Shown here: piece by piece, positions 8,443 through 32,707 of the stretch
Numbering within the stretch: position 1 is the stretch's first letter
Layout of the letters: each line of letters begins with the position of its first letter
Notes under the pieces: model-generated
The model's input: only the letters and a program-made list of their open reading frames with translations
Database searches by the model: none
Told to the model about the DNA's origin: nothing
Position numbers and translations under genes: made by a program
DNA from: Pseudonocardiaceae bacterium
GTDB taxonomy: Bacteria > Actinomycetota > Actinomycetes > Mycobacteriales > Pseudonocardiaceae
Direction: 5' to 3'
Length of the DNA stretch: 64,000 nt
NCBI GenBank assembly: GCA_050699715.1
Contig: JBOHFR010000009.1
Span: 28,941 to 92,940 of the forward strand

Positions 8443-8452
8443 GGGGAGGGAC

Positions 8453-17672: not shown

Positions 17673-17699
17673 TACAGTCGAGCCCAAGCCATGAGACCG

Positions 17700-18560
17700 T
17701 CACCGGCCAGGTTTCGGCGATGTGCTCCCGCTGCTGCGGGGTGTCGGCGTGGTTGCGGCCGAGGATGACGGTGTGGCGTGGGAGCACCGGTACCGGGGAG
17801 CAGCCGGATCGAAACCAGCGACCCGCTCGCAGGTGGTGATGGACCCGTCGGACTCCTCGACTGTCCAGCTCACCGGCGGCTCACCCCGGAGACCCTGGTC
17901 CCCTTTGGCGCCCTGGCATTGGGTGGGTTGAGCCAGACACGGAGCAGACTTGCCAGGCGCTCCCGGGTCACCCTGAGGTCCACGCAGTCCCTGGGCGTTG
18001 GCCGCGAGGTAGGCCTGCACCGCTGCGGTGAGCTGTTGGGGGGCCGGCCCTACGGGTGGCGGGGGCAGCTTGGCCAGTGCTGCCGCGATGTCCCCCTGGA
18101 TTTGCGTGGGAGTGCGCTCCACGCTGGACTCACGGGCGATCTTCGCCGCGACCTGGGCTGCGGACGACGCGGCGAGCACCTGGGAATCCGGCGCGGTCCC
18201 CAGTGTGGGGATTGCGACCGGTGTCAAGCCGCGGCGGGTGAGTTCGGCGTTGGCTTGGACCCCGAGATCGTGGGCGCTCTGCGCGAGCCGCTGAATGCTC
18301 TGCGCTTCAGACTGGAACAGGGCCGCGTTCGCCTTGTCAAGTTTTTCGTGATCCGAGAACCTGCTGGCAAGCAGCGCCAGCGGGGCGCCAATCAGCACGG
18401 ATGTGATCACCGAGGCCACCACCGCAGCCCGGAAGTAGGCCCGTCCTTCACGCCTGATCTCCTGCCGCGCGACCTGCGGGGCAACGTGGGCCGTTCGCGT
18501 AATGGAATCCCGCAGTTGGTCCAGGCCCTGGGTGAGCTCATCCACGCTGGTCATGGGCAT
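17700..18560 (-). CDS. Membrane-anchored hypothetical protein with a short collagen-like G-X-Y stretch
   Basis: TM 'AVVASVITSVLIGAPLALLA'. 'GLRGPQGDPGAPGK...GAKGDQGLRGEP'. Confidence 0.5.
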   Translation of the reverse strand: MPMTSVDELTQGLDQLRDSITRTAHVAPQVARQEIRREGRAYFRAAVVASVITSVLIGAPLALLASRFSDHEKLDKANAALFQSEAQSIQRLAQSAHDLGVQANAELTRRGLTPVAIPTLGTAPDSQVLAASSAAQVAAKIARESSVERTPTQIQGDIAAALAKLPPPPVGPAPQQLTAAVQAYLAANAQGLRGPQGDPGAPGKSAPCLAQPTQCQGAKGDQGLRGEPPVSWTVEESDGSITTCERVAGFDPAAPRYRCSHATPSSSAATTPTPRSSGSTSPKPGR

Positions 18561-18786
18561 CCGTCATCTGCATCACCTCGAGCTGTCTGATACGGGTCTG
18601 CAGGTCAGCAAGCGAGGACTGGACTATCATCACTAACTTCACAGCCTCACTGGCCAGTTGCGCAATCGCCGCGGACTCCGGCGATTCGGGGGTGGCCCGG
18701 CCTGATGTGAACCGCTCCACGACCAGCGGACCAACCAGAGCCGTGACCACAACCCCACCCAGGGAAATCACCGCGATAGTGATCAT
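18538..18786 (-). CDS. Small membrane protein
   Basis: Internal Met 'MITIAVISLGGVVVTALVGPLVV' of ORF 18538..19014. The upstream ORF extension looks non-coding. Confidence 0.4.
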   Translation of the reverse strand: MITIAVISLGGVVVTALVGPLVVERFTSGRATPESPESAAIAQLASEAVKLVMIVQSSLADLQTRIRQLEVMQMTDAHDQRG

Positions 18787-18875
18787 CAGCCACGGTGGCC
18801 CAAGAACCTCCGCAGTGCTTCCAGTCTCCACCCCTGCTCCGTTTCGCGGCCAAGAAGGAACAGCCCGGCCAGCCC

Positions 18876-19310
18876 CTAGCCTGAGAACGCGGGGCCCGAG
18901 AAGGTGGGAACCTTGCCGTTCTTCACTGCTTGGTGATTTAATTCCCAAGCGTTCAGCACAGTGAGCGGCAGGCGGCCACGCTCGTTGACACTGTGACCGT
19001 TCTGCTTGGCCCACTCGCGGATGGCCTTGAGCGTATCTCGGTTATAACCGCTGCTCGCAACACCACCGTTGCCTTTGCTGGCTCGCCGACCAGTCGAACG
19101 GTCGGCGCCATGAACGTTCGGGCGCCGCGCACTGGTCTTGCGAGCAGCCGCGACGTAACGGGCCAGGTTGTCACGAAGCTTGGCGGCGTTGTCGTCGGCC
19201 AAGTCGATCTCGTACGTGACACCCTCGAGCGCGAACTCGACTGTCGAAATATCCTCAGCTTCCTCGCCGGTGAGGTCATCGATGAGGGTGACGATGGTCT
19301 TCTGAGCCAC
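18876..19310 (-). CDS. lsr2: Lsr2-family nucleoid-associated protein
   Basis: 'VAQKTIVTLIDDLTGEEAEDISTVEFALEGVTYEIDLADDNAAKLRDNLARYVAAARK' and C-terminal 'IREWAKQNGHSVNERGRLP'. GTG start preceded by AAGGAG. Confidence 0.85.
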   Translation of the reverse strand: MAQKTIVTLIDDLTGEEAEDISTVEFALEGVTYEIDLADDNAAKLRDNLARYVAAARKTSARRPNVHGADRSTGRRASKGNGGVASSGYNRDTLKAIREWAKQNGHSVNERGRLPLTVLNAWELNHQAVKNGKVPTFSGPAFSG

Positions 19311-19453
19311 AGTTACAGAGTCTCCTTGTCGGGAGGAAGACGGCATAGGAACAACTGCCGTGCCGTGAACGCTGACCGCAATAAGATACACACTGCTCGG
19401 CGATGCGAGTCCGCGACATGCCGAAAACGCCAGTTTCACCTCTCCCGAGCGCT

Positions 19454-20455
19454 TCAGCCGGCGCGACGTGAGCGCGCCACCTCGGCGAGCACAACACCGG
19501 CGGCGACCGACACGTTGAGCGACTCGACCGGCCCCACCATGGGTATCGACACCGCGACGTCACAGGTTTCGCGGACCAGCCGGGACAGCCCGTGCCCTTC
19601 TGAACCGAGGACGAGCACTAGGGGGCCGGTGGCCAGCGGGAAAGCATCCAATGGCATTGCGCCGCCAGCGTCCAGGCCGACCACCATCACACCGGACGCG
19701 GCGACATGCTTGAGTGTGCGCACCAGATTGGTGACCCGAGCCACCGGCAGGCGCGCGGCCGTACCCGCCGAGGCCCGCCAAGCCACCGCAGTCATCCCCG
19801 CCGAGCGCCGTTGCGGGAGCACCAGTCCGTGCGCGCCGAACGCGACGGCGCTGCGGACCACCGCACCTAGGTTGCGCGGGTCGGTCATCCCGTCCAGCGC
19901 GACCAGCAACGGCGGCGTCCCGGACTCCCGCGCGCTCACCAGTACGTCCTCGACAAGCGCGTACTCATACGGCGGCACCTGCAGCGCCACTCCCTGGTGC
20001 AGCGCACCCCCGGCCAGCCGATCGAGGTCAGCCCGGGGCACCTCGAGAATGGACAGCCCGGCATCGGCGGCCAACCGTACGGACTCGCCGACCCGGTCGT
20101 CGAGGTCCACTCCGATGGCCACCTGCAGCGCGGTGGCCGGCACCCCGGCGCGCAGGCATTCCAACACCGAGTTGCGACCAAGGACGGTCTCCCCCGGCTC
20201 GCTACCACCGCGACGGCGGGCTGCGGCGGCCGGGCTGGGTGCGCGCTGCCCTGGATGCCGTGGAGTGGACTGGCGCTGGGCAGGGCTGCCCTGGGTGCCT
20301 TGACGTTGGGCCGGATGGCCGGGCCGCAGCTCGGCGGGCGGTGTGGCGCCGCGACCATGCAGCCCCTTGGATTTTTGTCCGCCGGAGCCGACGACGGCGC
20401 CTTTCTTGGTGCCCGGCTTGCGCATAGCACCCCTACGCGCAGAGTTACCAGCCAT
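19454..20455 (-). CDS. rlmB: TrmH/SpoU-family 23S rRNA 2'-O-methyltransferase (RlmB-like) with a basic N-terminal extension
   Basis: SpoU motifs '[20 protein letters not shown]', '[11 protein letters not shown]', '[13 protein letters not shown]'. Rv3579c-like position next to cysS. Confidence 0.85.
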
Positions 20456-21848
20456 GAGCTCCACTCCCCTTGCCCGTCCACACCGGACCATCGGGGGTGT
20501 CCTCGACGGCGATCCCGGCCGCCAACAGCTGATCACGCACCGCGTCGGCGGTTGCGTAGTCACGACGGTTGCGCGCCTCGGCACGCTCGGCGAGCAACCG
20601 GTCCACCAAAAAAGCCAGCGCCGCCGACGCGGCGTCTGACCCCGACGTCGAGCGCCACTGGTCAGCCAGCGGGTCCAAGCCCAGCACGCCGGTCATCGCA
20701 CGCACCGAACCGGCCGCGCCTAGCGCCGCCAAGTGGTCCCCAGCGTCCAGCGCCGCGTTGCCTTCGTGCACAGTGGCATGGACCGCAGCCAGGGCTGCCG
20801 GCGTACCGAGGTCATCGTCCATTGACCCGACAAACTCAGCGCACCAGCCGCGTGGCTCCGGCACCCCGCACCGCTCGCGCACTCGGTGCACAAACGACTC
20901 GATGCGCCGATAGGCTACCACCGCCTCGTCCAGCGCACCGTCGGAATACTCGATGGCAGACCGGTAATGCGCGGCAATTAGATAATAGCGCAGCTCTACG
21001 GCACGGACTCGGCGCAGGGTGGCCGGGATGGACAGCGTGTTGCCCAGCGACTTGGACATCTTCTCACCAGACATCATCACCCAGCCGTTGTGCAACCAGT
21101 ACCGGGCGAACCCATCACCGGCAGCGCGGGACTGCGCCCGTTCATTCTCATGGTGCGGGAAGACCAGGTCCAGCCCGCCGCCGTGGATATCGAACTCCGG
21201 GCCAAGGTAGGTGGTGGCCATCGCGGAGCATTCCAGGTGCCATCCGGGGCGGCCCGGTCCCCACGGCGTCGGCCAGGATGGCTCGCCGGGCCGGGCACCC
21301 TTCCACAGCGTGAAGTCCCGGGGATCGCGCTTGCCCGACGCGGCGGACTCACCCTGGCAGACCTCGTCGGGACGCTGCCCCGACAGCGAGCCGTAGTCGT
21401 CCATCGTGGCCACCGCGAAGTAGACATCACCCCCCGCAGCGTAGGCGTGCCCCCGGTCGATCAGCCGCGCCATCAGCTCCACCATCTGCGGAACATGGCC
21501 GGTAGCGCGCGGCAGCACCGACGGCGCCAGGCAGCCCAGCGCCGTGTAGGCGTCCTCAAACGCCCGTTCGTGCGTGTACGCCCATTCCCACCACGGCCGG
21601 CCCGCCTCGGCGGACCGGGTAAGGATCTTGTCGTCGATGTCGGTGACGTTGCGCACCAGCAGCACGTCGTGGCCGGTGGCACTCAACCAGCGACGCAGCA
21701 CGTCGTAGTTCAGCGCCGACCGCACGTGCCCGATGTGCGGGACGCCCTGCACGGTGGCCCCGCACACGTAGATCGACGCCGTGCGGGGTCGCAGCGGGAC
21801 GAACTCCCGCAGGCCGCGTGTCGCGGTGTCGTACAGGTGCAGGCTCAC
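20445..21848 (-). CDS. cysS: Cysteine--tRNA ligase
   Basis: '[15 protein letters not shown]' (HIGH) and 'KMSKSLGN' (KMSKS). Confidence 0.95.
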
Positions 21849-21905
21849 GACGTGATCGTAGAGCGTGGCTTGTCAAGCCCCACGATCAATACCCGGTCAC
21901 CGCCG

Positions 21906-23255
21906 TTACGCTTCGGCGGTGGGTCGGACTAGCAGCGCCTGACCAGCAGCGGATGTGCCGGTCAGTAGGGCCTGCTCTGCGGCGGGTTCCAGACCGGCCC
22001 GCAGGCCGAGAGAGATGATCTCCTCCGTGCAGATACCCTTCTGGAAAGTCCCCTTGGCCGCACTCGACCAGTAGCCGTCCTGGTGGGAAGACCAGTTCGC
22101 TGAGGCAGCTCTTGGGTCGATGTCAGCGGGTGATCGGGTGACGACAAGCAAATAACCACCCGGACGTACGAACTGGGCGGCGTGCTGCAGGGCTTGGATG
22201 CGTTGCCAGGGGTCGGGCAGGACGTTGAGCACGAAGATGTTGGCGACCAAGTCATACTGACGATCTTGCTTGGTGGTCCAGCCGAAGCCTGGGTGCGGGT
22301 CCCAGCCATCCGCATCCAATCCAGCAGCCCGATAATGGTCGACATCGCTGCCGCGCCCGCAACCGTGGTCCAGGACACTAGCAATGCCAAGCCGGGGTAC
22401 GAAGACATCGACGACGGTACGGGCGAACGGGGACGGACGAACGCGGCTCATCGCGGTCTTATGCGGTTGACACTCGGAACGGGTGAACAGGGCGCGGTCA
22501 GTCGGCTCGGGCAGCAGCGCGAACAGGGCTTCTCGATCCTCCACGGCGACGGTGTCGAGCGTGACCGGGACGTCCATGAGAATGCCGGAATGGTCGGTGA
22601 ATGCCTGCTCGCCAGCGCGAGTGGAATGATCGTATCGGACGTTGACCATCGGAAGCAGGTGACCGGGAACCAGAGCGAGGTCGCACCGAAACCGGCTGCG
22701 CAGGCCTGACCGTTGACGCTCAATAGTGAACTGCGGAGTCTCGGTGGCGGTAGCGTCGGCGAGGCCGTTATCAACCAATAACTCGGCGAACGGTTTGCGA
22801 TCTATGGAACTGTTGAAGTTGCTGGGCCGTCCGTTGTTGAGGCCGTCAACCGGACGAGGGGCGAGGTTGAAGTCTCCGCAGGCGAGTATAGGCCGTCCGT
22901 TTTCGACGGCAATAATCTCCTGGAATCGGCAGAGCTGGCGGCGACGAGAGGTAGCCGAGCGGCAGTCGAGGTAGGTGTTGTACGCCACTAGCCAGCCTAG
23001 TTCCAGGCGTTGGACGAAACTTTCTAGTCGGGAAACCGGTGGGATGGGGACCTGTTCTGCGCTCCAGCAGAAAAGGTCCCCATCTCCGCCGACTGACCTG
23101 TAGGCGGCCAAGTTGACCGCAGTACGGTTCACTGGCTTCCACGGCTCCTGGGCGACCAGCACATCCACGTGGTGGTAATGCAGCCAAGCTGTGAGTTTTG
23201 CTCGTGCGGCGGGGTTGCCAAGGCGCTTGTTGAGGTTTATTGAGGCTAGGCGCAC
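21906..23255 (-). CDS. Fusion protein: EEP (ExoIII/APE1-like endonuclease/exonuclease/phosphatase) domain + SAM-dependent methyltransferase domain
   Basis: EEP motifs 'INLNKR', 'VLVAQE', 'GDFNLAP', 'FTDHSGILMDV'. C-terminal MTase motif I 'VLDHGCGRGSD' and 'VRPGGYLLVV'. Confidence 0.7.
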   Translation of the reverse strand: MRLASINLNKRLGNPAARAKLTAWLHYHHVDVLVAQEPWKPVNRTAVNLAAYRSVGGDGDLFCWSAEQVPIPPVSRLESFVQRLELGWLVAYNTYLDCRSATSRRRQLCRFQEIIAVENGRPILACGDFNLAPRPVDGLNNGRPSNFNSSIDRKPFAELLVDNGLADATATETPQFTIERQRSGLRSRFRCDLALVPGHLLPMVNVRYDHSTRAGEQAFTDHSGILMDVPVTLDTVAVEDREALFALLPEPTDRALFTRSECQPHKTAMSRVRPSPFARTVVDVFVPRLGIASVLDHGCGRGSDVDHYRAAGLDADGWDPHPGFGWTTKQDRQYDLVANIFVLNVLPDPWQRIQALQHAAQFVRPGGYLLVVTRSPADIDPRAASANWSSHQDGYWSSAAKGTFQKGICTEEIISLGLRAGLEPAAEQALLTGTSAAGQALLVRPTAEA

Positions 23256-23271
23256 AAAATCTCCTCGTCAA

Positions 23272-24273
23272 CTACAGAGTAACAGCGGTTCCCGATCGGA
23301 CTTCCTCGTCGAATGCGTTCCACAACAAGTTGAGTGGATGCGTCGGCGTATATTGCTCCCGCTCGCCCTTGCGGGCGAACACGCCGGTGACCAGTTCAAG
23401 CATTGGATCGAAGTCTTCGGCGAACGCAACGAGTCGAAAGTCAGAACCGCCGGGGAGTCGCCCTTCGACGGCCGCTCGCCCGATAGCCTTAGAGACGATC
23501 ATGCATCCGTATATCATTCCAGAGCGTAGTAGCGCCAGGCCATAGTAGATGTCGTCGATAGTAGTCGCGATAGTCAATTTGTTGCGAAAGTCACTACCGT
23601 ACCAACGCGAAAGAAATTCCACAATCACACCGCCGGACGGGATCACGAGCGGGGCCGACGGCAGTTTTTGTCGCCCGACCGCATTTGCTGCAAGCTCTCG
23701 CCGGGGCAAGTTCGTCAACAGTGCAAGTCCTTCACGATGCCATTCGAGGAAATCGTACTGGCCAAGAAATTCGAGACTTCCAACCGCTGAGGCGAACCCG
23801 CCGCACATCAGGTCAACCTCCTTGGTGTCCAGTCGAGTGAACGTATCTTTGGTGCGCACGTGCACTATTTTAAGTTCGATCTCACGGGACTGGAATTCAT
23901 TACTAACACGTTGCCATACCCGACTTAAGAAATCCAGGGTGAACTCAGTGGTTCCTACCGAAATTGTCTGCCCCAGACGGCGCCGGGCGCCGTCTATTGA
24001 TGATTTCCATGCGGTCAGGGTAGTACGGGCCAATTCGACGAACTGCCATCCGGACGGTGTGAACAGGAATTGCTTGCCACGTCCCTGCTTGATTACCAAC
24101 TGCTCTCCGCACATTTTCCGGAAGCTGCGGTTGAGTGTATCCAGCTGCTTTTGCACGCTGGACTGCTCTCGGCCTAGCACCCGGGCCGCGCTGAGAGCCG
24201 AACCGGTCTCGGCCACCAGTACCAGGGTGCGCAGCTGATCGAATGTGGTCTCCAACAGTCCCGCGCCGACCAT
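23272..24273 (-). CDS. LysR-family transcriptional regulator
   Basis: 'FDQLRTLVLVAETGSALSAARVLGREQSSVQKQLDTL' HTH. Start taken at 'MVGAGLLE'. Visibly AT-richer than its surroundings. 16 nt upstream of the nuclease-MTase gene and divergent from the 24503+ operon. Confidence 0.8.
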   Translation of the reverse strand: MVGAGLLETTFDQLRTLVLVAETGSALSAARVLGREQSSVQKQLDTLNRSFRKMCGEQLVIKQGRGKQFLFTPSGWQFVELARTTLTAWKSSIDGARRRLGQTISVGTTEFTLDFLSRVWQRVSNEFQSREIELKIVHVRTKDTFTRLDTKEVDLMCGGFASAVGSLEFLGQYDFLEWHREGLALLTNLPRRELAANAVGRQKLPSAPLVIPSGGVIVEFLSRWYGSDFRNKLTIATTIDDIYYGLALLRSGMIYGCMIVSKAIGRAAVEGRLPGGSDFRLVAFAEDFDPMLELVTGVFARKGEREQYTPTHPLNLLWNAFDEEVRSGTAVTL

Positions 24274-24502
24274 CTCGACCCCGCCAAGGTGCGGCGTGCT
24301 CGTCAACCTATCGTCCTTTACCAACTCCGCACCGCCTTCTTTTCCGGTGACAAAATATTCGATCAAACATTTGAAGTGCACCAGATCACAGTTCCAGTTG
24401 GAGCCACCTCTAGATGTTCGACAGCACATCTAGACGCCTGAAACTTGATCAGGGAATATTTGACCATGGGCTCACCAACCTACGCGGACGGAGGTGGAGC
24501 GG
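24274..24502. promoter_or_regulatory. Divergent promoter/operator region between the LysR gene and the Dcd-like operon
   Basis: Inferred only from the divergent LysR-target arrangement. No operator identified. Confidence 0.35.
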
Positions 24503-25462
24503 ATGTGGACAGCGGGCGTGCCCACAAAGCTGATTGACTCCGGCGACGTCGGCTGGCCGAAACAGTCGATCACGTGCCAGCTGCGGCTGCTGGGCGGTTC
24601 GGGCCGCAACGGCAACGGCATGACTTCCGACGTCGATGCGACCACGCAGCGGGTGGTGGTCCTCACCGAGGAGGCTAGGGTGCCCAAGTTGATGATCCAT
24701 TCCGGCGGCAGTGTGAAGAGCGGCGCATACTACCGTGGCGGTAACAGCTTCCCGATCTGCCCGATCGAACCTCACGCTGGTGCCCTGACGACCGCTGGTC
24801 GAGCGGTCATTCCACTCGAATCCGCAAGCCGATTCACTACCCAACGCATAACCTCAAGATGTACAGAACAGCTGAAACAAGCACTGGAGACGAAGAAGAT
24901 GTTTTTAGACGAATTGGCAGTGCGGTCGCTCATCAACGAAGGCAGGCTAGATTGGGGCGGTGAGCTCCGGCGTGATTCCCTCCTGTTGACCCTCGGCAAC
25001 CGGTTGCAGTCAATGGCGCACCGCCCGCCAGCGGTGGTGGACCTGACTGATCAGGACCAGATTGACGCGATCTATGGCGAGACCCTGGTCGGATGGCATT
25101 CTTTCACCCTGCGACGCGGTGAGCTGGCACTCTTCCACGCGGATCACTCGGTGGCGCTCCCGCGTAGCGTGGGCGGGTTCATCGGCGGGTTGAGCCACAT
25201 GGCGAGGCTCGGTCTCACGGTGCATCTGGACACGCCTATCGTCGATGCCGGATTTCACGGAGTACTGACCATCGAGATGTTCAATGCAGGCCCGTCCGAC
25301 GTGATCCTTCGGCCGGGGATGCCGGTCGCGAAGGTACTCCTGTACCGCGTCGGCGACGGTGCGCTCGTTGAGCCGTATCACCACGTTTTCTACGGAAACG
25401 AAGAGCACCTCGGAAGCAAATACGCGTCCGAGTTCTTCTCGGCGCCCGCCACGGAGGGGTGA
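24503..25462 (+). CDS. dCTP deaminase/dUTPase-fold protein with a ~130-aa N-terminal extension of unknown function
   Basis: C-terminal 187 aa are Dcd-like ('GGLSHMARLGLTVH', 'DAGFHGVLTIEMFNAG', 'VAKVLLY'). The upstream in-frame 135 codons have strong third-position GC bias over about the first 85 codons. GGAGG lies 8 nt before the ATG at 24503. Alternative start: ATG 24899 (GGAGA RBS). Confidence 0.65.
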   Translation: MWTAGVPTKLIDSGDVGWPKQSITCQLRLLGGSGRNGNGMTSDVDATTQRVVVLTEEARVPKLMIHSGGSVKSGAYYRGGNSFPICPIEPHAGALTTAGRAVIPLESASRFTTQRITSRCTEQLKQALETKKMFLDELAVRSLINEGRLDWGGELRRDSLLLTLGNRLQSMAHRPPAVVDLTDQDQIDAIYGETLVGWHSFTLRRGELALFHADHSVALPRSVGGFIGGLSHMARLGLTVHLDTPIVDAGFHGVLTIEMFNAGPSDVILRPGMPVAKVLLYRVGDGALVEPYHHVFYGNEEHLGSKYASEFFSAPATEG

Positions 25463-25463
25463 A

Positions 25464-26087
25464 GTGATCGACTGCGCTTTCTGCGATGAGTTCGCCCAGC
25501 CGACCGAGGCGACCTGGATCGTGGCTCGCACGCAGGGCCGGGTGGTTCTCCCGACGATCGGCTGCCTCACCCAGGGCTACCTGCTCTACATGCCGCACGA
25601 GCACACGCTCGCGTTCGCCGATCTCGACGACGCGGAACTGCACGAGTGCGAGCAGGACATCGACAGCCTGCGCAGCGCATTGGCCGACCGGTACGGTCCG
25701 ATGATCGTCGCCGAGCACGGCCCGCGGGAGTGCGACCTCGGAGCGGGCTGTTGTGACCACGCACACATGCATCTGATCCCGGTGCCAACCCCGGATCGGG
25801 TAGTCGGGGAGTACTTCGAGATCGGGGGGCCGACAGAACCGTACCGGACGCTGGCGGAGTGCCTCGCCTCCGTCGATGAGGCCTACGTGTATGTCTCACC
25901 AGCGCCTACAGAGCACTACATTCGGCCGGCGACGGAGTTTCCCCGGCAATGGGTGCGTCGGGTGTGCGCGGATATTTACGGCAAGGCGTCCCAATGGGAC
26001 TGGCGCGACCATCCCTTCGACCTGGAGCGCCAGCGGACGTACGATGCACTGATCGGAATTCCACTGCTGCCGTCCCGGATACCTTGA
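25464..26087 (+). CDS. HIT-superfamily (histidine triad) nucleotide hydrolase/transferase-like protein
   Basis: 'CAFCDE' N-terminus and triad 'HAHMHLIPV'. GTG start 1 nt after the Dcd-like stop, with GGAGGGG upstream. Confidence 0.65.
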   Translation: MIDCAFCDEFAQPTEATWIVARTQGRVVLPTIGCLTQGYLLYMPHEHTLAFADLDDAELHECEQDIDSLRSALADRYGPMIVAEHGPRECDLGAGCCDHAHMHLIPVPTPDRVVGEYFEIGGPTEPYRTLAECLASVDEAYVYVSPAPTEHYIRPATEFPRQWVRRVCADIYGKASQWDWRDHPFDLERQRTYDALIGIPLLPSRIP

Positions 26088-26986
26088 TGCCTGGCATCTG
26101 CGATGCACCTCCGACCCTCTCCCTGCTCACCCCGGAGGAGAGCAGAGAAAGGGCACGGGACCGGCGATGGCCAAAATGGTCGACGCAGTGCTTTATGCAT
26201 TCCCTGGGCCTGGCCGTCCTGGACGCATGCCTGATAACGCCCGACGCCGCGCTACAGCTCGCTGACGCCGTCAAGGCGTTCGCGCGGCTACACGACAGCG
26301 CGGCGGTGATGATCCGATCCGACGGGGGAATGGAGACCACGGAGTACCGGCGAGGCGGCCACACCCTGACCGTGGAACAGGCGGTCGAACACGCACACGA
26401 TTTACTGTCGCACCGTCGAGCCGTCCTGCTGATGGAACCGACGAACCGGTTCACCAACAGGCTGACCGCGATGATACGGATCGATCGTGAGGCGCCTCAC
26501 GGCGAAACCGGGCAGCTGACAATCGAGGTGCTCGGCCCCGGATACGACCTCGCCGACCTGGCCAGAAGCGGTGTGCAGCCGCACGCTCGGATTGAGGTCC
26601 GCAACATCGACTGGGACCGGCCGGAGGCCCTGTGGCCACAGGACGTCTTCGCCACCGTGGTGGATGCGTCCGTGCCGGCCAGACTCGAGGCAAGGCTGGA
26701 CTTCATCGGCGCGCACTGCCTACCGGGGCAGGCGGCGGTCGACAAAGTCACCCGCGTCGAGCACGCCCGGATCTGGTTGTTGGAGCGGGGGTACGGCGAG
26801 CTTTTCGAGCCTTTCGACCTGACGTCCGCCCTGCGGCACCTACCCGACTGGCACCGGGACGCGTTCTCGATCGCAGCTGGCATCCCGCAGGTGGGGTGGA
26901 CCTGCGTGGCGACTGGCTGGTCCGATCTGGGCGACGGCCGCAATGTCTACTGGGACATCATCGATGGAAGAAACAAATATGGCTGA
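26087..26986 (+). CDS. Hypothetical protein; weak resemblance to the nucleotide-binding (ATP-grasp) half of PEP-utilising enzymes
   Basis: ATG overlaps the HIT stop (TGATG). 'VMIRSDGGMETTEYRRGG' and 'AVLLMEPTN' loosely recall PPDK_N 'VAVRSSA...FAG' and 'AVLVQxMV'. This is not a confident domain call. Confidence 0.55.
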   Translation: MPGICDAPPTLSLLTPEESRERARDRRWPKWSTQCFMHSLGLAVLDACLITPDAALQLADAVKAFARLHDSAAVMIRSDGGMETTEYRRGGHTLTVEQAVEHAHDLLSHRRAVLLMEPTNRFTNRLTAMIRIDREAPHGETGQLTIEVLGPGYDLADLARSGVQPHARIEVRNIDWDRPEALWPQDVFATVVDASVPARLEARLDFIGAHCLPGQAAVDKVTRVEHARIWLLERGYGELFEPFDLTSALRHLPDWHRDAFSIAAGIPQVGWTCVATGWSDLGDGRNVYWDIIDGRNKYG

Positions 26987-28172
26987 CATGACTGAGGCGC
27001 AGCAGCGCAGGGCTCTTTACTTCGACTATCAAGCAACCACTCCGGTCGACCCCGGTGTTGTGGCCGCGATGCTGCCGTTCTTCACGGATCAGTTCGGCAA
27101 CGCGGGCTCGCGCCACAGCTACGGCACGGCTGCGGCGTTCCATGTTGCCGCGGCGCGGCAGCGGGTCGCCCAGCTCATCGGGGCGCTGTCCCCGGACGAG
27201 ATCGTCTTCACGGCGGGTGCTACCGAGAGCAACGCCACGATCATCCGGAATGTCTTTGCCGCTGCGGAACGGGCCCACTTCGTCACGACCGCGATCGAGC
27301 ACCCATCGGTGCTGGGTCCGGCCGCCGAGCAGGCACGGGTCGGGCACGAAGTCAGCTACCTCGCGGTCGATCGTCAGGGGCGGGTCGACCCGGTACAGGT
27401 CGAGTCCTTGATCCGTTCGGAGACGAGACTCGTGTCCGTCATGCACGCGAACAACGAGGTCGGGACGATCCAGCCGCTTGCCGACATCAGCCGCATCACA
27501 CGTGCCGCAGGCGTCCTGTTGCACGCCGACCTGACGCAGACCGCCGGTGCTCTCGAGGTGGACGTGCAGGAGCTGGGGGTAGACCTTGCTTCCTTCTCCG
27601 CACACAAGTTCTACGGACCGAAGGGCATCGGCGCCCTGTATGTACGCAGAGGATGCAGCCTAGGGAAGGGGCCGGGCAGGACCGAGTCGGCGCTGCGCCC
27701 CGGGACCCTGAACGTGCCGGGCATTGTCGGCATGGGCACCGCCGCCGAACTGGCTGTAACGCGGAGGTTGGCCGACAGGATCCACACAGGGACCCTGCGG
27801 ACGCGGTTCGCGGAGGCATTGTTGGCCGCGATGCCGGACGCGTTCGTGAACGGCCACCCGACGGAGCGCATCCCGGGGAACCTGAGCGTCACCTTCCCCG
27901 GCATCGAGGTGGACGAGGTGCTGCGAGCCGACCCGGGCCTTGGCCTGGCGATGGGCTCGGCCTGTACGTCGGGCCGGACGGAACCTTCGCACGTCCTACT
28001 GGCCCTGGGCTTGTCCCGGACGCTCAGCCGCTCGACGCTGCGCATCGGATTCGGCCGGGCAACCGAATGGGACGACTGCCACGAGTGCGTGGAGCGCCTG
28101 GTGCCCCTGCTGATGAGATCCCGGTCCAGATCCCGCGCCGGCGAGGAAGTGTCCACCGGAGGGGCTAGATAG
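26979..28172 (+). CDS. Cysteine desulfurase (class V aminotransferase, IscS/NifS-like)
   Basis: 'YFDYQATTPVD', 'FTAGATESN', PLP-Lys 'SFSAHKFYGPKGIGALYV', catalytic loop 'GSACTSGRTEPSHVLLALG'. Start overlaps the previous stop by 8 nt. Confidence 0.85.
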   Translation: MADMTEAQQRRALYFDYQATTPVDPGVVAAMLPFFTDQFGNAGSRHSYGTAAAFHVAAARQRVAQLIGALSPDEIVFTAGATESNATIIRNVFAAAERAHFVTTAIEHPSVLGPAAEQARVGHEVSYLAVDRQGRVDPVQVESLIRSETRLVSVMHANNEVGTIQPLADISRITRAAGVLLHADLTQTAGALEVDVQELGVDLASFSAHKFYGPKGIGALYVRRGCSLGKGPGRTESALRPGTLNVPGIVGMGTAAELAVTRRLADRIHTGTLRTRFAEALLAAMPDAFVNGHPTERIPGNLSVTFPGIEVDEVLRADPGLGLAMGSACTSGRTEPSHVLLALGLSRTLSRSTLRIGFGRATEWDDCHECVERLVPLLMRSRSRSRAGEEVSTGGAR

Positions 28173-28202
28173 CGTGTTCCTATCGGTCGAAGGGCTGGTG
28201 AC

Positions 28203-30047
28203 GTGACCCAGTATTCGGGGCTACTCCGCCTCTCTGGATGGTGCACGAGCCGTCACCCGATAAGCGGGAGCCTGGATCTGACCGGACGTTTCACTGCCGG
28301 TCCGCTCAGACGTGACGTCGCTGACTGGCTGGCGATGGAGCCGCTGAGTCTGCTGGCGGCCCGGCACCATGACGCTTGGGAGCAACTGGCCGAGCTCGCG
28401 AACCGACTCGAGCGAGAGCGTCGCGCTCCGGTGGAGTTCGAGTTCGAGCTGACGAAGGACCATGCCTGGCCTACCCGCGTCCGCAACGCGCGGATGCAGC
28501 CGCTCGCGTACGTCGCGGCGATACATGATCTCGTGCGCACCGGCGTCATGTCCCCGAGCGAGGCGGTGCTCGCGGTAACCCCGGAGCAGGTACGGGCCTG
28601 TCTGACCCCGACCGTCGTGCCGACCGCCGACGGCCTGCTCGGCGTGGGGCTCGGCGTCTCACCGGGTGCTGGGTCCGGCCGGGTGGTCTTCAGCTCGGAC
28701 GAGGCGAGCCTAGTCGGTGGTCGCTGCGTACTAGTGGTCGGCGACTCACGGCCGGAGGATTTCGGTGCTAGAAGGCATCTTGCGGGTGTGGTCGCGTTGC
28801 GCGGCGGTGCGACCTCGCATGCCGCAGTCGTGGCGAAGGGTCTCGGACTGCCGATGATCGCCGGGCTCCGGGACGCCGTACTGGACAGTGCGTCCGAGGT
28901 GCTCCGGATCGGCGGCCGTGCGGTATCGCGCCTCGACGTCGTGACAATCGACGGGAGCCAGGGGCATCTCTACACGGGCAGCGCCACCGTGACCGATGGC
29001 TCGATGACACCAGCCCTCGCGGAGCTCATCGGATGGGCTGACCAGCCTCGGATGATCCAGGTGCACGCGAACGCCGACAGCGGCGAGGATGTACGCACGG
29101 CGAAGAAGCTGGGCGCCTCTGGGGTTGGACTCTGTCGCCTTGAGCACGTTCTCGCGGCCGGAGGAGGAACCGCTCAGCTTCGGAAGGTCTTCGCGCACAA
29201 GGATCCCGCGGCACGCACCCGTGTGGTCGAGGAGGTGACGCGGCTCCTCACAACTCTGCTCACCGATGTCCTGCTGGCGGCTGACGGCGTACCGGTCACC
29301 GTCCGGCTGCTGGACGTTCCGCGCCACGAGCTTGTCAATGGTTCGGTCGGCGAGACCGACCCGACGGCCGGAATCGGTGAGGTCAATCCGATGATGGGCA
29401 CCCGGGGTGTGCGCGACTTCCTGATCAACGCCGACCTGGGTGTCGCGCAGGTGGCCGCCATCGCGCGGTCCTGCCGAGCGGTCGCGGAGCTGGGTCTACC
29501 CACAGATGTCCGAATCCTGGTGCCGATGGTCGGCTTCAGCGAGGAGTTCCGGCGAGCGAGGCAAGTCGTCGAGTACGTCTTTGAGCGGGAAGCGCCCGGT
29601 GGCCGAGCCTCCCCACCTGCCGTCGGCTGCATGATCGAGGTTCCCCGGATCGCGCTCAACGCGGCCGAACTCGCTGCAGACGCCGACTTCCTGTCGATCG
29701 GCAGCAACGACCTGACGCAGTTCACGCTGGCCGTGTCCCGCGACGACGCCGAAGCCGGCTTCCTCGGCTCCTACGTCCGCGACCAGGTGATCACCGTGAA
29801 TCCCTTCGAGTGCCTCGATCGCGAGGGCGTCGGGCGCATCCTGCGCATCTGCATCGACGAGGCGCGGGGCGCGCGACCAGATCTCCCGATCGGCCTGTGC
29901 GGGGAGCACGCCAGCGACCCGGCGTCGGTGGAATACCTCGTGTCCCTGGGATTGGACTCCCTGTCGTGTTCGCCGCGACAGGTACCGCTGACCCGGTTCA
30001 GCGCCGGCCGCGCCACGCTCATGCAGTCGATGACCTCGCCAGACTGA
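28203..30047 (+). CDS. PEP-utilising enzyme (PPDK/PEP-synthase-like) lacking most of the N-terminal ATP-grasp domain
   Basis: Swivel phospho-His domain 'GGATSHAAVVAKGLGLPMIAG'. TIM-barrel motifs 'GVGLCRLEH', 'VTVRLLD', 'NPMMGTRG', 'GCMIEVPR', 'LSIGSNDLTQF', 'GLCGEHASDP'. Only the last subdomain of the nucleotide-binding domain is present. The start could be the Met at 28335. Confidence 0.85.
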   Translation: MTQYSGLLRLSGWCTSRHPISGSLDLTGRFTAGPLRRDVADWLAMEPLSLLAARHHDAWEQLAELANRLERERRAPVEFEFELTKDHAWPTRVRNARMQPLAYVAAIHDLVRTGVMSPSEAVLAVTPEQVRACLTPTVVPTADGLLGVGLGVSPGAGSGRVVFSSDEASLVGGRCVLVVGDSRPEDFGARRHLAGVVALRGGATSHAAVVAKGLGLPMIAGLRDAVLDSASEVLRIGGRAVSRLDVVTIDGSQGHLYTGSATVTDGSMTPALAELIGWADQPRMIQVHANADSGEDVRTAKKLGASGVGLCRLEHVLAAGGGTAQLRKVFAHKDPAARTRVVEEVTRLLTTLLTDVLLAADGVPVTVRLLDVPRHELVNGSVGETDPTAGIGEVNPMMGTRGVRDFLINADLGVAQVAAIARSCRAVAELGLPTDVRILVPMVGFSEEFRRARQVVEYVFEREAPGGRASPPAVGCMIEVPRIALNAAELAADADFLSIGSNDLTQFTLAVSRDDAEAGFLGSYVRDQVITVNPFECLDREGVGRILRICIDEARGARPDLPIGLCGEHASDPASVEYLVSLGLDSLSCSPRQVPLTRFSAGRATLMQSMTSPD

Positions 30048-30100
30048 GTGGCCGGTGTGGCCGGCTACGTTCCGCTGTCATCCTGCTACTCTCCGCCGCC

Positions 30101-30451
30101 ATGACGAGTGGCACGAGCATGCGAGGGAAGCTGGTACGTGACCGGATTCCGGAGATTATCCTGCAGGCGGGGCTCATCCCCGTCATCGAGACCGCGTCAC
30201 CGGAGGACTACGGCCGGTACGTGCGCGCGAAGCTGGAGGAGGAGCTTGCGGAGTACCTGAGTTCCGGGGACGTGGCCGAGGTGGCCGACCTCGTCGAGGT
30301 CTGCTTCGCCGCTGCGGCGCTGCACGGTGTCGGTCAGGACGAGTTGCTGGCGATCGCCCGGGACAAGCGACAGCAGCGCGGTGGCTTCGAGGATCGGCTC
30401 GTGTGGCTGGGGAACCTACCGGGCGATCACGAGCCGCCAGCCGGATCGTGA
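30101..30451 (+). CDS. All-alpha MazG-like NTP pyrophosphohydrolase (COG4997-type house-cleaning enzyme)
   Basis: 'KLVRDRIPEII', 'KLEEELAEY', 'EVADLVEV', 'RGGFEDRLVW'. Start is the ATG at 30101 or 30119. Confidence 0.7.
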   Translation: MTSGTSMRGKLVRDRIPEIILQAGLIPVIETASPEDYGRYVRAKLEEELAEYLSSGDVAEVADLVEVCFAAAALHGVGQDELLAIARDKRQQRGGFEDRLVWLGNLPGDHEPPAGS

Positions 30452-30522
30452 CGAACCCTGGGCGACGATACGCGGCAGGGCCAGCTCACGTAGATTGACG
30501 CCGTATCGGGAGTTGCGGCTGT

Positions 30523-32076
30523 TCAGCTGCTCGGACCGGAACTGCCGGGCCGCCAGAGTGGCGCGGCGATTGGCCTGAGTCCATGCGCTTCCAGCTGGGC
30601 GTCGAGTGTCGTGACGGCGGGGGTGCTTTTCCAGGGTTGCATCAGAGCCCGGACGGCGTGGATTCTTGCTGTGAGCCGTGGGGAGAGGCTCGCGAATCTG
30701 GCCACGTCACCGAGCACCCGCGCGGCCTCGGTGATCTCCTTGGACAGCACGAGCCCGTGGCCCAGTCTCACCTCACAGAATGCGCGGTCGTGCACATAAG
30801 GGGTGCGCTCGTACCACGCTAAAGAATTGGTCGCGGCTTCGACGGCCTGCCGTGGCTTGCCCAGCAGTGAGAGAAATTTGCTGCGGTCCCTGTCTAGCGC
30901 GCCCTCGTTCACCCAGTACGCCAGTGACTCGGGGGCACCCGCAGTTGCACTGGCGAGGAACTCCTGAGCTCGTGCGCACGCAGCCATACACGGCCCGAAT
31001 TGGCCGTCTAGCGCATAGGCCTCGGCGGCTTGCAGTTCGGCGAAGGCTTTAAGCCGGACGTCGTCGGTGCGCGCGGCCAGGCTGCGGGCAGCGGCGGCGG
31101 CGTCCAGCGCGGCGGGCGTGTCCCCGCGCTCGAATGCCGCAAAGCTTGTCCAGCACGCCGCGTAGGCGGCCGACGCCGGGTTGCGAGCGTCGTGACCAGC
31201 TCGGCGGGCGCGCTCGAAATAGCGTGTGGCCCCGTCAGGGTGGCCCATATCCAGGAAGTAGCCACCGATTGTGGTTGCCATATTGCTGTCCACCGTGTTC
31301 AGCGACCTGCGCAATCCTTCCGGGCAGCCCTTAAGCAGACGACGCACAACCCCATGCTGCGCAACGACCGTGTCCAGCACCTCACACGGCCCGAGTGTGT
31401 CTTCTTGACGCTTGCAATGGGCCAGCGTGGTCGCCAGGTTGTTCACCACATGGGGGTCTACCCGGTGCGGCGAGTCCACAGCCTGCGCCACCCGGTTGCA
31501 CTCGTCGGCGTCCAGGCCAGACAGGCCCATGGTCGCCAGTGCTAAACGGGCGACCCGCAGCGCTTCGCGACGACCCAGGGACCGCGCCAATGTCGCGACC
31601 ACCTCCCGCATTAACTCCTCGGCTACTTCACCGTCCACACCCATCGTCTCCGGCCACGCGCCGCGCCGGCTGCCCTGGCCGCGCTTCCACACAGCATGCG
31701 ACGGTGCGGGCGAGGCCCGGAGGGCGTCCGCGCCGGCCTGCGCCGCTGCTTGCCGCGTTTGGCGCTGGTGGGTGCGCCACCGACCACGGTAGTCCTGTTC
31801 AGCCTGCGCCAGCGTGGTGTGCTCGGTCACCAGGGCACCGTCAGCGCGGCACACGTCGTCGGTGATCTTCCACTGCTTCCCGGGCATCCCGCGCGTGCCG
31901 TGCTCGACCTTCGAGATCGTGGTCCGGGTCCGACCGAGGGCCTGAGCCAGCTCGGGTTGCGAGACCCCGGCCGCGTGGCGGTAGGTGGCCAGGTGCAGAC
32001 CCAGGCTCCGCCGCAAGATCGCCAACCGCGCCCGGTCAGCCGTCAATTCCCCCGTATCGACCGTCATGGCCGTCAA
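30523..32076 (-). CDS. XRE-family HTH regulator with a TPR-like C-terminal domain
   Basis: 'LATYRHAAGVSQPELAQALGRTRTTISKVEHGTR' HTH plus a long helical-repeat C-terminus. Confidence 0.8.
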   Translation of the reverse strand: MTAMTVDTGELTADRARLAILRRSLGLHLATYRHAAGVSQPELAQALGRTRTTISKVEHGTRGMPGKQWKITDDVCRADGALVTEHTTLAQAEQDYRGRWRTHQRQTRQAAAQAGADALRASPAPSHAVWKRGQGSRRGAWPETMGVDGEVAEELMREVVATLARSLGRREALRVARLALATMGLSGLDADECNRVAQAVDSPHRVDPHVVNNLATTLAHCKRQEDTLGPCEVLDTVVAQHGVVRRLLKGCPEGLRRSLNTVDSNMATTIGGYFLDMGHPDGATRYFERARRAGHDARNPASAAYAACWTSFAAFERGDTPAALDAAAAARSLAARTDDVRLKAFAELQAAEAYALDGQFGPCMAACARAQEFLASATAGAPESLAYWVNEGALDRDRSKFLSLLGKPRQAVEAATNSLAWYERTPYVHDRAFCEVRLGHGLVLSKEITEAARVLGDVARFASLSPRLTARIHAVRALMQPWKSTPAVTTLDAQLEAHGLRPIAAPLWRPGSSGPSS

Positions 32077-32242
32077 CCCTAGAGGGTGGCACGCGGGGTG
32101 GCAGCCCGATACGGGTCACCTCTCCCGCCACTCTGGCCACAACTGCCACAGTTCGCCATGCACCTGGTGCCGGGCCGCCGCGACAAACCCATGAGAGAGG
32201 CGGCGGGCGCGGACGGAAGCAACGACTGCTTGTGACCGCCGG

Positions 32243-32707
32243 CTACGCACGCATGAGCAGCACCGTTGCCACGGCGGCGATGCCCTCGCCGCGGCCGGTC
32301 AGCCCGAGGCCGTCGGTGGTGGTGCCGGATACCGAGACCGGCCCGCCCAAGGCGTCGGACAGCACTCGCTGCGCCTCGGCCCGGCGGCTACTCACCCGCG
32401 GCGCGTTGCCGATCACCTGCACCGCGCCGTTACCCACCACCCAGCCCTGGACGGCCAACCTGGTGCGTACCTCGGTGAGCAGGTCGGCGCCGTGCGCGCC
32501 GGCCCACCGCTGCTCGCCGGTGCCGAACACCGCACCGAGGTCGCCCAAGCCAGCGGCGGACAGCGCGGCGTCGCACAACGCGTGCGCGGCGACGTCACCG
32601 TCGGAGTGCCCGGCGCAACCTGGTAGCCCGGGCCAGTGCAGCCCGGCGATCCAGCAGTCCCGGCCAGCTTCCACCGGGTGCACGTCGGTGCCGATCCCGA
32701 CCCTCAT
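32243..32707 (-). CDS. ispF: 2-C-methyl-D-erythritol 2,4-cyclodiphosphate synthase
   Basis: '[10 protein letters not shown]', '[15 protein letters not shown]'. ATGA overlap with ispD. Confidence 0.9.

Follow-up and report, generated by a model that had tools for sequence, protein, structure and literature searches.

A mobile and conserved seven-gene unit joining a cysteine desulfurase, deoxynucleotide-type enzymes and a nuclease-methyltransferase, inserted between cysS and ispF of a Pseudonocardiaceae bacterium

Dnd and Ssp systems, which introduce sulfur into DNA and are carried on mobile islands, each have a cysteine desulfurase of IscS/DndA type that is dedicated to the system, together with a DNA-nicking enzyme and activators that use ATP. 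Phage pathways for modified deoxynucleoside triphosphates (dNTPs), namely the MazZ-PurZ-DatZ pathway of the Z-genome and thymidine hypermodification, utilize a MazG-type enzyme, a dUTPase-fold enzyme and ATP-dependent modifiers and kinases; MazZ makes the deoxynucleoside monophosphate (dNMP) for the modified-base pathway. Deamination of deoxycytidine triphosphate (dCTP) is reportedly used as an anti-phage defence, and in the known defensive dCTP deaminase (Dcd) proteins the deaminase and a kinase domain are joined in one polypeptide. In the Campylobacter O-methyl phosphoramidate pathway (Cj1415-Cj1420), a kinase resembling pyruvate phosphate dikinase (PPDK) and rifampin phosphotransferase (RPH), cytidine nucleotide intermediates, a nucleotidyl transferase and S-adenosylmethionine (SAM) methyltransferases build an unusual phosphoryl group, which decorates capsule sugars and is made with glutamine nitrogen, not sulfur, and without a nuclease. 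Two-component dikinases are a documented class in which HpeI is a stand-alone ATP-grasp enzyme and its partner carries the swivel histidine (PMC12167813). Here, a 64,000-nt stretch of DNA from a Pseudonocardiaceae bacterium (assembly GCA_050699715.1, contig JBOHFR010000009.1, positions 28,941 to 92,940; this whole stretch is called the window) was analyzed, and a cassette that shares parts with several of these systems was found in the spacer between cysS and ispF.

The core of the cassette (21906-30451) represents a single copy of a mobile gene system that is complete in itself and comprises two divergent operons. The unit consists of seven genes, encoding a LysR regulator, a fusion of an endonuclease/exonuclease/phosphatase (EEP) domain to a methyltransferase (EEP::MTase), a Dcd-like protein, a HIT protein, an ATP-grasp protein, a cysteine desulfurase and a MazG-like protein (Table 1). 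A first-pass annotation, made from the letters of the window, had not recognised the combination as any described system, and the searches agreed. PADLOC called no system and matched only the desulfurase (DndA and SspA models) and, weakly, the HIT protein. No NCBIfam equivalog was found for the core proteins, three of which are named 'hypothetical' by the annotation pipeline PGAP, and the gene combination was not described in the full-text literature searched, which included a Dnd reappraisal paper and has most subscription journals outside its coverage. The seven-gene system is apparently undescribed.

Table 1. Features at and around the inserted block, numbered from the first nucleotide of the window
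Feature	Position	Strand	Basis or remark
rlmB	19454-20584		Beside cysS; above NCBIfam cut-off
cysS	20445..21848	-	Left flank; TIGR00435 410 bits, above cut-off
Inserted block, ispF/cysS intergenic spacer	21865..32243	.	blastn synteny break against empty-site relatives L062, L065, L066
EEP (APE1/ExoIII/LINE-1-type) endonuclease::class-I SAM methyltransferase, 449 aa	21906..23255	-	Pfam Exo_endo_phos 5e-9, Methyltransf_23 1e-10
LysR-type regulator, divergent	23272..24273	-	16 nt upstream of EEP::MTase gene; Pfam HTH_1 3e-8
ATP-grasp gene relic	24494..24898	+	Homology 24545-24844; in frame upstream of Dcd
Dcd family (dCTP deaminase-like, dUTPase fold), 187 aa	24899..25462	+	Pfam DCD 6e-19
HIT protein, predicted CWF19 C-terminal type, 207 aa	25464..26087	+	Profile and AlphaFold2 (AF2)/Foldseek
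Stand-alone ATP-grasp protein, tentatively dikinase (PPDK-N/RPH/HpeI) type, 299 aa	26087..26986	+	AF2 pLDDT 91 and Foldseek
IscS/NifS-type cysteine desulfurase, 397 aa	26979..28172	+	Aminotran_5 3.5e-71
N-terminally truncated PPDK, 614 aa (last ATP-grasp subdomain, swivel His domain, phosphoenolpyruvate (PEP)/pyruvate TIM barrel)	28203..30047	+	PEP-utilizers and PEP-utilizers_C
MazG-like all-alpha NTP pyrophosphohydrolase, 116 aa	30101..30451	+	Invariant EExxE and ExxD-type motifs
XRE helix-turn-helix and NsdA-family tetratricopeptide repeat (TPR) regulator	30523..32076	-	HTH_31 5e-11, NsdA_fam_reg 6e-39
ispF	32243..32707	-	Right flank; TIGR00151 146 bits, above cut-off

The ATP-grasp protein (26087-26986), which falls in no named family, was used as the marker for a survey of other genomes. 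About 100 relatives were obtained at 90% clustering, none of them named, and the family is rare, with 348 clusters at 50% identity among 1.84 billion representatives. One genome per species was scanned, which gave 53 loci, and a hidden Markov model (HMM) of each window protein was run on all of them; co-occurrence was counted over the 28 loci that had full 10-kb flanks. The HIT and ATP-grasp genes were present at all 28, MazG at 27, the desulfurase at 26, Dcd and EEP::MTase at 25 each and LysR at 23, and all seven genes were found together at 20 of the 28. The system is carried chiefly by Streptomyces and Micromonospora. The seven genes do therefore co-occur elsewhere, and the suspected tie between the nuclease-methyltransferase and the biosynthetic genes holds, since EEP::MTase accompanies them at 25 of 28 loci.

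Two architectures were distinguished. Type A (Streptomyces, Micromonospora and Streptosporangiaceae) has MazG on the plus strand, EEP::MTase and LysR on the minus strand, and Dcd, HIT, ATP-grasp and desulfurase on the plus strand. Type B (Kribbella and locus L012) is carried on a single strand and comprises X::Dcd, HIT, ATP-grasp, desulfurase, a Tmk-like kinase, EEP::MTase and PPDK, the last sometimes fused to MazG (PPDK(::MazG)). Metagenomic and other variants (L051, a Bacteroidota metagenome-assembled genome (MAG), L060, L061 and L067) retain Dcd-HIT-ATP-grasp. The desulfurase is missing from L051, L046 and apparently L067; the cassette type of desulfurase was not detected in L067 by Pfam calls nor in L060 by the family HMM. 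The biosynthetic arm occurs without the nuclease arm in L019 and L054.

Several single loci showed arrangements of their own. In Kribbella catacumbae (L003, 6780-16209), Dcd is fused to YqcI_YcgG, a heme enzyme family, and the PPDK-like protein is fused to MazG; two thymidylate-kinase-like genes and a 398-aa protein of no known kind are also present, and the cassette is adjoined by a major facilitator superfamily (MFS) transporter and two further ATP-grasp genes. In L013 (4276-5604), MazG is followed on its own strand by EEP::MTase. A 2.7-kb contig labelled 'MAG: Mycobacterium sp.' (L007, JAOPVF010000247.1) is 89% identical to the Dcd-HIT-ATP-grasp region of the window; the contig has either been misbinned or mislabelled, or the region has been transferred into a Mycobacterium. 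A distant relative of the ATP-grasp protein (33-34% identity) is found without Dcd or HIT in L005 and L006 (10001-10951), where its neighbours are an AAA ATPase, N6_N4 DNA methyltransferases and a Cas4-like PDDEXK nuclease; because of this context, the ATP-grasp family may serve other DNA-conflict systems too.

The neighbours of the cassette are unrelated between genomes, the 142 immediate neighbour proteins spanning 148 Pfam families and including several transposases. The cassette was found on two Streptomyces plasmids, where PGAP names its products as an NTP pyrophosphohydrolase, a methyltransferase-domain protein, a LysR regulator, three hypothetical proteins and a cysteine desulfurase. 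A complete type-A cassette lies at 85571-91883 of pSMg1-2 from Streptomyces sp. Mg1 (NZ_CP011666). In L067 (137-8677), EEP::MTase, a LysR-like gene, Dcd, HIT and ATP-grasp are flanked by a tyrosine integrase and phage-type DUF1580/PDDEXK/AAA_24 genes, and in L060 (340-10148) a variant with a 386-aa PEP-utilizer protein lies on a conjugative element (Prim-Pol, TraG-like). The system is mobile and conserved. A phage origin was considered and rejected, as no relative of the cassette was found in the phage sets IMG/VR and INPHARED (tblastn) or BFVD (structure). No conserved transporter, exporter, resistance gene or further tailoring gene was found in the 28 loci and their flanks.

Proximity to defence islands, which had been suggested as a check, was seen in part. 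The cassette adjoins a TIR protein in L061, and a type I restriction-modification system and KAP and nSTAND NTPases are nearby in L001. About 12 of the 142 immediate neighbours match PADLOC models, comprising MADS mad2 and mad3 (three members each), a type I methyltransferase, E1-E2, PDC-M37B, Cas2, DolB (Dodola) and ShosA (Shosta). Defence neighbours thus occur at some loci, but the enrichment (~12/142) is modest.

The first-pass annotation had placed a cassette of about 10 kb, inserted between two runs of core genes, at the cysS/ispF junction, and comparison with relatives bore this out. The products of rlmB, cysS, ispF, ispD and radA each scored above their own NCBIfam cut-offs, the closest IspF proteins were all from Pseudonocardiaceae or Pseudonocardiales MAGs, and the flanking order was seen in relatives (LpqE-CarD-IspD-IspF-CysS-SpoU). 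The ATP-grasp protein of the cassette has a 100% identical counterpart in a Pseudonocardiaceae MAG, and a mycobacterial origin was rejected. The ispF-cysS spacer is 67-124 bp in four relatives (L062-L065) whose ispF is 89-91% identical to that of the window; a fifth relative contig (L066) has 1.6 kb in the spacer, encoding a flavoprotein and two small genes (8488-10002). Synteny of the relatives with the window by blastn stops at 21848-21864 and restarts at 32244. Because of these breaks and the short spacers of the relatives, about 10.4 kb of the window (about 21865-32243), holding the nine open reading frames (ORFs) between cysS and ispF, is extra DNA. The block is an insertion, most likely acquired horizontally, and is not common to all relatives. 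No integrase, transposase or tRNA was found in or beside it by Pfam scan and tRNA search, the nearest and only tRNA being at 55.7 kb; no Rfam element was found when RNA elements were looked for in 19-35 kb; and flanking repeats in the window were limited to short ones at chance level.

A Pseudonocardiales MAG (L008) carries the same cassette at 89% identity. In this genome ∼175 bp of the cysS 5' end and upstream sequence are duplicated at the far (ispF-side) edge of the cassette (14481-14655, matching window 21763-21930 at 81% identity), including a 30-codon N-terminal fragment of cysS. The duplicate is probably a recombination scar at the site, and the window has lost this copy. The cargo of the spacer varies, from nothing (L062-L065), to a flavoprotein and small genes (L066), to those genes and the cassette (L008, 14600-16240), to the cassette and the NsdA-type XRE-TPR gene (window, 30523-32076); the ispF/cysS spacer is a recurrent landing site for differing cargo.

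In the window, cysS and EEP::MTase share a strand, and 57 nt (21849-21905) now separate the EEP::MTase stop from the cysS start that follows it; homology to the empty-site relatives ceases just 12-16 nt upstream of this start. The original cysS promoter therefore seems to have been displaced, and the essential cysS may depend on read-through from the cassette. In Streptomyces sp. DvalAA-14 (L036) a type-A cassette lies ∼5 kb from rlmB-cysS-ispF, on the rlmB side (5667-12048, 17285-20828), with cysS and ispF still close together; this proximity may be a coincidence or may mark a common hotspot region.

The part of the cassette that had been noted as AT-richer was confirmed, the 1-kb bins at 23-25 kb having GC contents of 0.56 and 0.58, the minimum of the window (mean 0.667, sd 0.032). 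Composition unlike that of the host was found in the left arm only: GC at third codon positions (GC3) is 0.70 for EEP::MTase and 0.63 for LysR and 0.80-0.90 for host genes, whereas the right arm (0.77-0.83) is host-like. The two arms also differ in their relatives. EEP::MTase and LysR of the left arm are 63-71% and 73-78% identical to Micromonospora type A; against Kribbella, EEP::MTase is 35% identical and LysR is absent. Dcd, HIT, ATP-grasp and desulfurase of the right arm are 78, 72, 63 and 63% identical to Kribbella type B and 40-50% identical to type A.

A relic of an ATP-grasp gene lies between the arms. Residues 18-117 of the ORF at 24494-25462 correspond, in degenerate form, to the first third of an ATP-grasp protein, and over ∼100 aa they are 48-53% identical to Micromonospora-type proteins and 31-34% identical to the cassette's own. 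The relic is without the family-invariant ATP-grasp residues (R77, D79, E83, P118, N120), and the stretch has frameshifting indels in L008 and L009 and is partly deleted in L010. The first-pass annotation had read this stretch as an extra N-terminal domain of Dcd, which was ruled out. As the upstream stretch has decayed, and ATG 24899 and the GGAG upstream of it are kept in L008 and L009, the Dcd gene was set at 24899-25462, giving 187 aa (type-A proteins have 185 aa). Judged by these identities the cassette is best described as a mosaic, in which the relic would have the same origin as the left arm. The most economical account is that a type-B arm took the place of the biosynthetic arm in a type-A cassette, and the AT-richer left part would then be explained by retention of the type-A left arm. 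The idea that LysR is the most conserved protein, and hence more than a regulator, was dropped, as its high identity to type A reflects the mosaic origin of the left arm and the LysR of L051 is only 24% identical.

Profile searches agreed with the domain assignments made at first pass (Exo_endo_phos with Methyltransf_23, LysR helix-turn-helix, DCD, HIT, ATP-grasp, Aminotran_5, PPDK, MazG-like and XRE-TPR), and the right-arm spacing given there matched the ORF coordinates (1-nt gap, 1-nt overlap, 8-nt overlap, 30-nt gap and 53-nt gap). The EEP domain scored 36.7 bits against Exo_endo_phos (Pfam cut-off 24.5), and its family profile run against the PDB matched LINE-1 endonuclease (5.6e-10), then ExoIII and APE1, the best relatives all being DNA endonucleases. 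Its catalytic residues N7, E37, D128-N130 (GDFN) and D221-H222 (DH) are invariant, and the domain is predicted to be a DNA endonuclease of nickase type. In the methyltransferase domain the SAM motif I (LDxGCGxG) is invariant, the PDB matches are UbiG-like, and a weak match to the dnd-associated TIGR04096 reached 55 bits (cut-off 150). The LysR start was set by family alignment, the longest ORF reaching 24429; PDB matches were LrhA and OxyR, and the protein appears to be of a divergent yet ordinary LysR type.

Dcd aligned to E. coli Dcd (1xs1) at 7e-16, with the equivalent of catalytic Glu138 invariant, the C-terminal lid present and equivalents of Ser111 and Arg115 present; R110 and S112 of GRSS are replaced, the motif being GLSH family-wide. 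Against TIGR02274 the protein scored 79 bits (equivalog cut-off 92.8). The HIT protein has an invariant H99-x-H101-x-H103 triad and also has an N-terminal CxxC and a CC pair. Its profile matched CWF19L1 in the PDB at 8e-10 over residues 4-195, and its AF2 model (predicted local distance difference test, pLDDT, 92) matched CWF19L2/L1 in Foldseek (TMq 0.71) ahead of Hint, Ap4A phosphorylase and aprataxin; the score against Pfam CwfJ_C_1 was only 16 bits (cut-off 21). Profile and model together predict a HIT protein of CWF19 C-terminal type with the triad intact.

No Pfam, NCBIfam or PDB sequence-profile match was found for the ATP-grasp protein. The top Foldseek PDB matches of its model were all ATP-grasp enzymes at probability 1.0 (DcsG, HpeI, PEP synthase, rifampin phosphotransferase, PurK, succinyl-CoA synthetase beta and Ddl), and the best match among the viral structures of BFVD was a PPDK_N-like protein. 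The model clearly predicts an ATP-grasp fold; assignment to the dikinase branch is tentative, because TM is ∼0.4 and DcsG, PurK and Ddl score alike. The desulfurase matched the PADLOC DndA (2.8e-123) and SspA (6.7e-123) models and retains the PLP (pyridoxal phosphate) lysine (SAHK) and catalytic cysteine (GSAC). It fell under the equivalog cut-offs of the NCBIfam NifS, DndA and IscS models (DndA 337 bits, cut-off 480), and is therefore a cysteine desulfurase but not a DndA equivalog. The closest PDB profile match of the MazG-like protein was MazZ (7ody; 1e-4 over 45 residues), Pfam PRA-PH was below threshold at 0.31, and the Streptomyces homologue is named 'nucleoside triphosphate pyrophosphohydrolase' by PGAP.

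Two genes of the block lie outside the unit, both having been counted with it at first pass. The PPDK-like protein aligns to residues 254-871 of the 874 of Clostridium symbiosum PPDK, the first 253 being missing, and keeps the His455 motif (GGATSHAAVVAKG) and the Cys831 motif (GLCGEH). It matched TIGR01828 over model positions 252-864 only, at 428 bits (cut-off 843); by this model and the alignment it is not a complete three-domain PPDK, the N-terminal nucleotide-binding domain being absent. It was rejected as a core component, as it occurs at 3 of the 28 loci, and is a lineage-specific accessory. In L010 a 625-bp insertion follows the desulfurase gene (6357-6982) and the PPDK-like gene (6993-8845) is broken into two ORFs (479 and 138 aa), a split suggestive of decay. 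In the window, the desulfurase gene (27308-27324) and the PPDK-like gene (28665-28681) have 17 nt in common, GGTGCTGGGTCCGGCCG, as a perfect direct repeat; in GC-rich coding sequence such a match is probably due to chance. The XRE-TPR gene, which had been taken to close the cassette, was rejected as a system member, being missing from the 89%-identical cassette of L008 and from the other loci; in L008 a different XRE-like gene and a flavoprotein gene occupy its position. It is separate, variable cargo of the same spacer.

The reading that we prefer, and hold only tentatively, is that the cassette makes a sulfur-containing deoxypyrimidine nucleotide and couples this synthesis to a nuclease-methyltransferase that acts on DNA, the whole serving as a module for defence or DNA modification. 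The substrate, the transfer of sulfur to a nucleotide, the sequence of reactions, what the nuclease does and the function in defence are inferred, as follows. The Dcd-like and MazG-like proteins would bring a deoxypyrimidine triphosphate, dCTP or deoxyuridine triphosphate (dUTP), to the monophosphate. The translationally coupled HIT protein, with nucleotidyl-histidine chemistry, and the dikinase-type ATP-grasp protein would activate the nucleotide, the truncated PPDK adding a swivel histidine and a PEP-binding domain in the window lineage, and the IscS-type desulfurase would provide sulfur as persulfide. The resulting deoxynucleotide would carry this sulfur either in a thio-base or in an alpha-thiophosphate. 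A base could be thiolated by Dcd-type attack at C4, possibly with hydrosulfide replacing water, and an alpha-phosphate could be thiolated by attack of the persulfide on a HIT-dNMP intermediate. Hint enzymes run the latter chemistry in the opposite direction, removing sulfur from nucleoside phosphorothioates. PPDK run in reverse converts NMP, pyrophosphate (PPi) and PEP to NTP; such a reaction, or the Tmk-like kinases in Kribbella, could return the product to the triphosphate. The nuclease-methyltransferase would act on DNA according to the presence or absence of the mark, in restriction or in repair or immunity, and LysR would control both arms. Free nucleotides that shuttle between mono- and triphosphate are suggested by the Tmk-like kinases in the Kribbella cluster and by the PPDK::MazG fusion. 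The biological role is likely to be phage or plasmid defence or DNA modification. Among the hypotheses first offered for the block, the evidence leans to a sulfur- or phospho-modification policed by the nuclease-methyltransferase.

In a more specific form, which we consider rather unlikely in full, the cassette would use persulfide sulfur to convert dCTP or dUTP, by way of a HIT nucleotidyl-histidine intermediate and phosphoryl transfer of the dikinase type, to a new kind of sulfur-bearing precursor of DNA. The precursor would be either a deoxypyrimidine nucleotide with a 4- or 2-thio base or a dNTP-alpha-S. It would enter DNA through the pool, and the mark would be read or policed by the APE/LINE-1-type nuclease-methyltransferase.

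Several observations weigh against the preferred reading. PADLOC recognises no system, the defence genes in the flanks are modestly enriched, and LysR regulators are typical of metabolic operons, not of defence systems. Variants without the desulfurase or without the nuclease indicate that sulfur may come from the host IscS or be dispensable, and that the arms are separable. As 25 of 28 loci have no swivel-His partner, the ATP-grasp protein must work otherwise there. The usual activators in thiolation are PP-loop ATPases, not ATP-grasp enzymes. A modification made at the level of the pool would also enter replicating phage DNA, which weakens a simple restriction-modification logic.

Among the alternatives the best surviving, though unlikely, is a biosynthetic cluster for a thio- or phospho-nucleoside or nucleotide metabolite (an antibiotic or signal), with EEP as a nucleotide phosphatase, the methyltransferase as a tailoring enzyme and LysR as the pathway regulator. 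Streptomyces and Micromonospora as the main carriers would fit such a cluster, as would the suitability of LysR, ATP-grasp, desulfurase, HIT and a small-molecule-type methyltransferase (Methyltransf_23, UbiG-like) for nucleoside natural-product chemistry, and the MFS transporter and two more ATP-grasp genes beside the Kribbella copy. However, the exporter, resistance or tailoring gene expected of a metabolite cluster is not conserved, the flanks differ in nearly every genome, and EEP matches DNA endonucleases (LINE-1 EN, ExoIII, APE1), not phosphatases. Copies also lie beside integrases, phage-like genes, the TIR protein, restriction-modification and other defence genes, and no known cluster was matched in the full-text literature.

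Direct modification of DNA with sulfur, by a route unlike Dnd or Ssp, is improbable. EEP would nick DNA, ATP-grasp and HIT (acting like aprataxin on a 5' phosphate) would activate the nick, and the desulfurase would give a phosphorothioate or similar group, Dcd and MazG being supporting or sensing proteins. The parts parallel SspABCD (desulfurase, nickase, activating enzyme), the desulfurase scores strongly against DndA and SspA models, the EEP domain is of nickase type, and the HIT fold is of the nucleic-acid-bound type of the spliceosome, with aprataxin among its structural matches. The resemblance of the methyltransferase to TIGR04096 points the same way, but its score is far under the cut-off. 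This scheme leaves without a role Dcd (25/28), MazG (27/28), the PPDK::MazG fusion and the Tmk-like kinases, all of which point to free nucleotides, and the biosynthetic arm exists without the nuclease in L019 and L054.

Depletion of the nucleotide pool, as in abortive infection, is similarly improbable. On infection the Dcd-like, MazG-like and HIT proteins would destroy dCTP and other dNTPs and EEP would degrade DNA, with no modified product. All three proteins consume nucleotides, defence by dCTP deamination is known (bioRxiv 10.1101/2021.04.26.441389), and the context is compatible with defence; the ATP-grasp protein (28/28), the desulfurase (26/28) and a PEP-driven, NTP-regenerating PPDK are left unexplained, and Dcd is matched by no PADLOC model at E 0.01 and differs from the kinase-fused single polypeptides of known defence. 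Chance juxtaposition of housekeeping-like genes, or ancestral core genes in place of an insertion, would suit the host-like GC3 of the right arm and the lack of an integrase, transposase or tRNA in or beside the block, but is highly improbable, being refuted by the empty sites in close relatives and by the recurrence of the seven genes, their order unchanged, on plasmids, in distant genera and in a Bacteroidota MAG.

The seven-gene unit, its two architectures and its modular arm-swapping are new whatever the chemistry. If the preferred reading is true, the cassette would be an undescribed mobile system joining sulfur mobilisation, deoxynucleotide chemistry and a DNA nuclease, and would extend the known modifications of DNA or nucleotides and, probably, the known mechanisms of defence. 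It would give functions to the CWF19/Drn1-related HIT subfamily, whose eukaryotic relatives are poorly understood, to a Pfam-less ATP-grasp family and to a truncated PPDK. If the more specific form is true, sulfur would have a third route into DNA, mechanistically independent of Dnd and Ssp and the first to pass through the nucleotide pool. An enzymatic route to thio- or phosphorothioate nucleotides, which are widely used reagents, would be of practical use.

In comparison with the described systems, the desulfurase is the only part of the cassette common to Dnd and Ssp, and the cassette is therefore neither. Among the nine ORFs no DndB, DndC (a phosphoadenosine phosphosulfate (PAPS)-reductase-like ATP pyrophosphatase), DndD (an SMC-like ATPase), DndE or DndFGH was found by Pfam, NCBIfam or PADLOC, and of the Ssp models only SspA matched, with none for the SspB nickase, SspC ATPase, SspD ATP pyrophosphatase or SspE. 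In general plan the likeness is closer, since both have a desulfurase, a nicking-type enzyme, ATP-using proteins and mobility, and the cassette methyltransferase is weakly related to the dnd-associated family. The PP-loop ATP pyrophosphatase and ATPases are replaced in the cassette by Dcd, HIT, ATP-grasp and MazG, which are enzymes of free nucleotides.

Defence by dCTP deaminases shares with the cassette a Dcd-family protein in a defence-like mobile context. The cassette Dcd differs in being one of seven co-conserved genes and in the change of GRSS to GLSH; no PADLOC model reached E 0.01 on it, and its N-terminal extension is the ATP-grasp relic, not a kinase. The Campylobacter pathway has a similar mix of enzymes, a comparison made from general knowledge and not by sequence. 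The cassette ATP-grasp protein resembles HpeI of HpeHI, the RPH ATP-grasp domain and the N-domain of PEP synthase, and is thus comparable to HpeHI, phenylphosphate synthase and RPH/PPDK. The window encodes a separate swivel-His protein (PEP-utilizers domain, His motif kept), as does L060, and the pair would by analogy work most like a two-component dikinase. It differs from that class in that the window partner retains the PEP/pyruvate barrel of PPDK and not an RPH-type substrate domain, and in that the swivel-His partner is lacking at 25 of 28 loci; the invariant neighbour of the ATP-grasp protein is the HIT protein.

The phage modified-dNTP pathways resemble the cassette in having a MazG-type and a dUTPase-fold enzyme with ATP-dependent modifiers and kinases, and also in the proposed logic of dNTP to dNMP, modification, and return to dNTP. 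They differ in that the cassette lacks homologues of PurZ, thymidylate synthase and aGPT-Pplase, includes a nuclease-methyltransferase as well as a desulfurase and a HIT protein, and is carried by chromosomes and plasmids of Actinomycetota and not in the phage sets. By analogy, the cassette appears most like a cross of the sulfur-based DNA modification systems and the phage modified-dNTP pathways.

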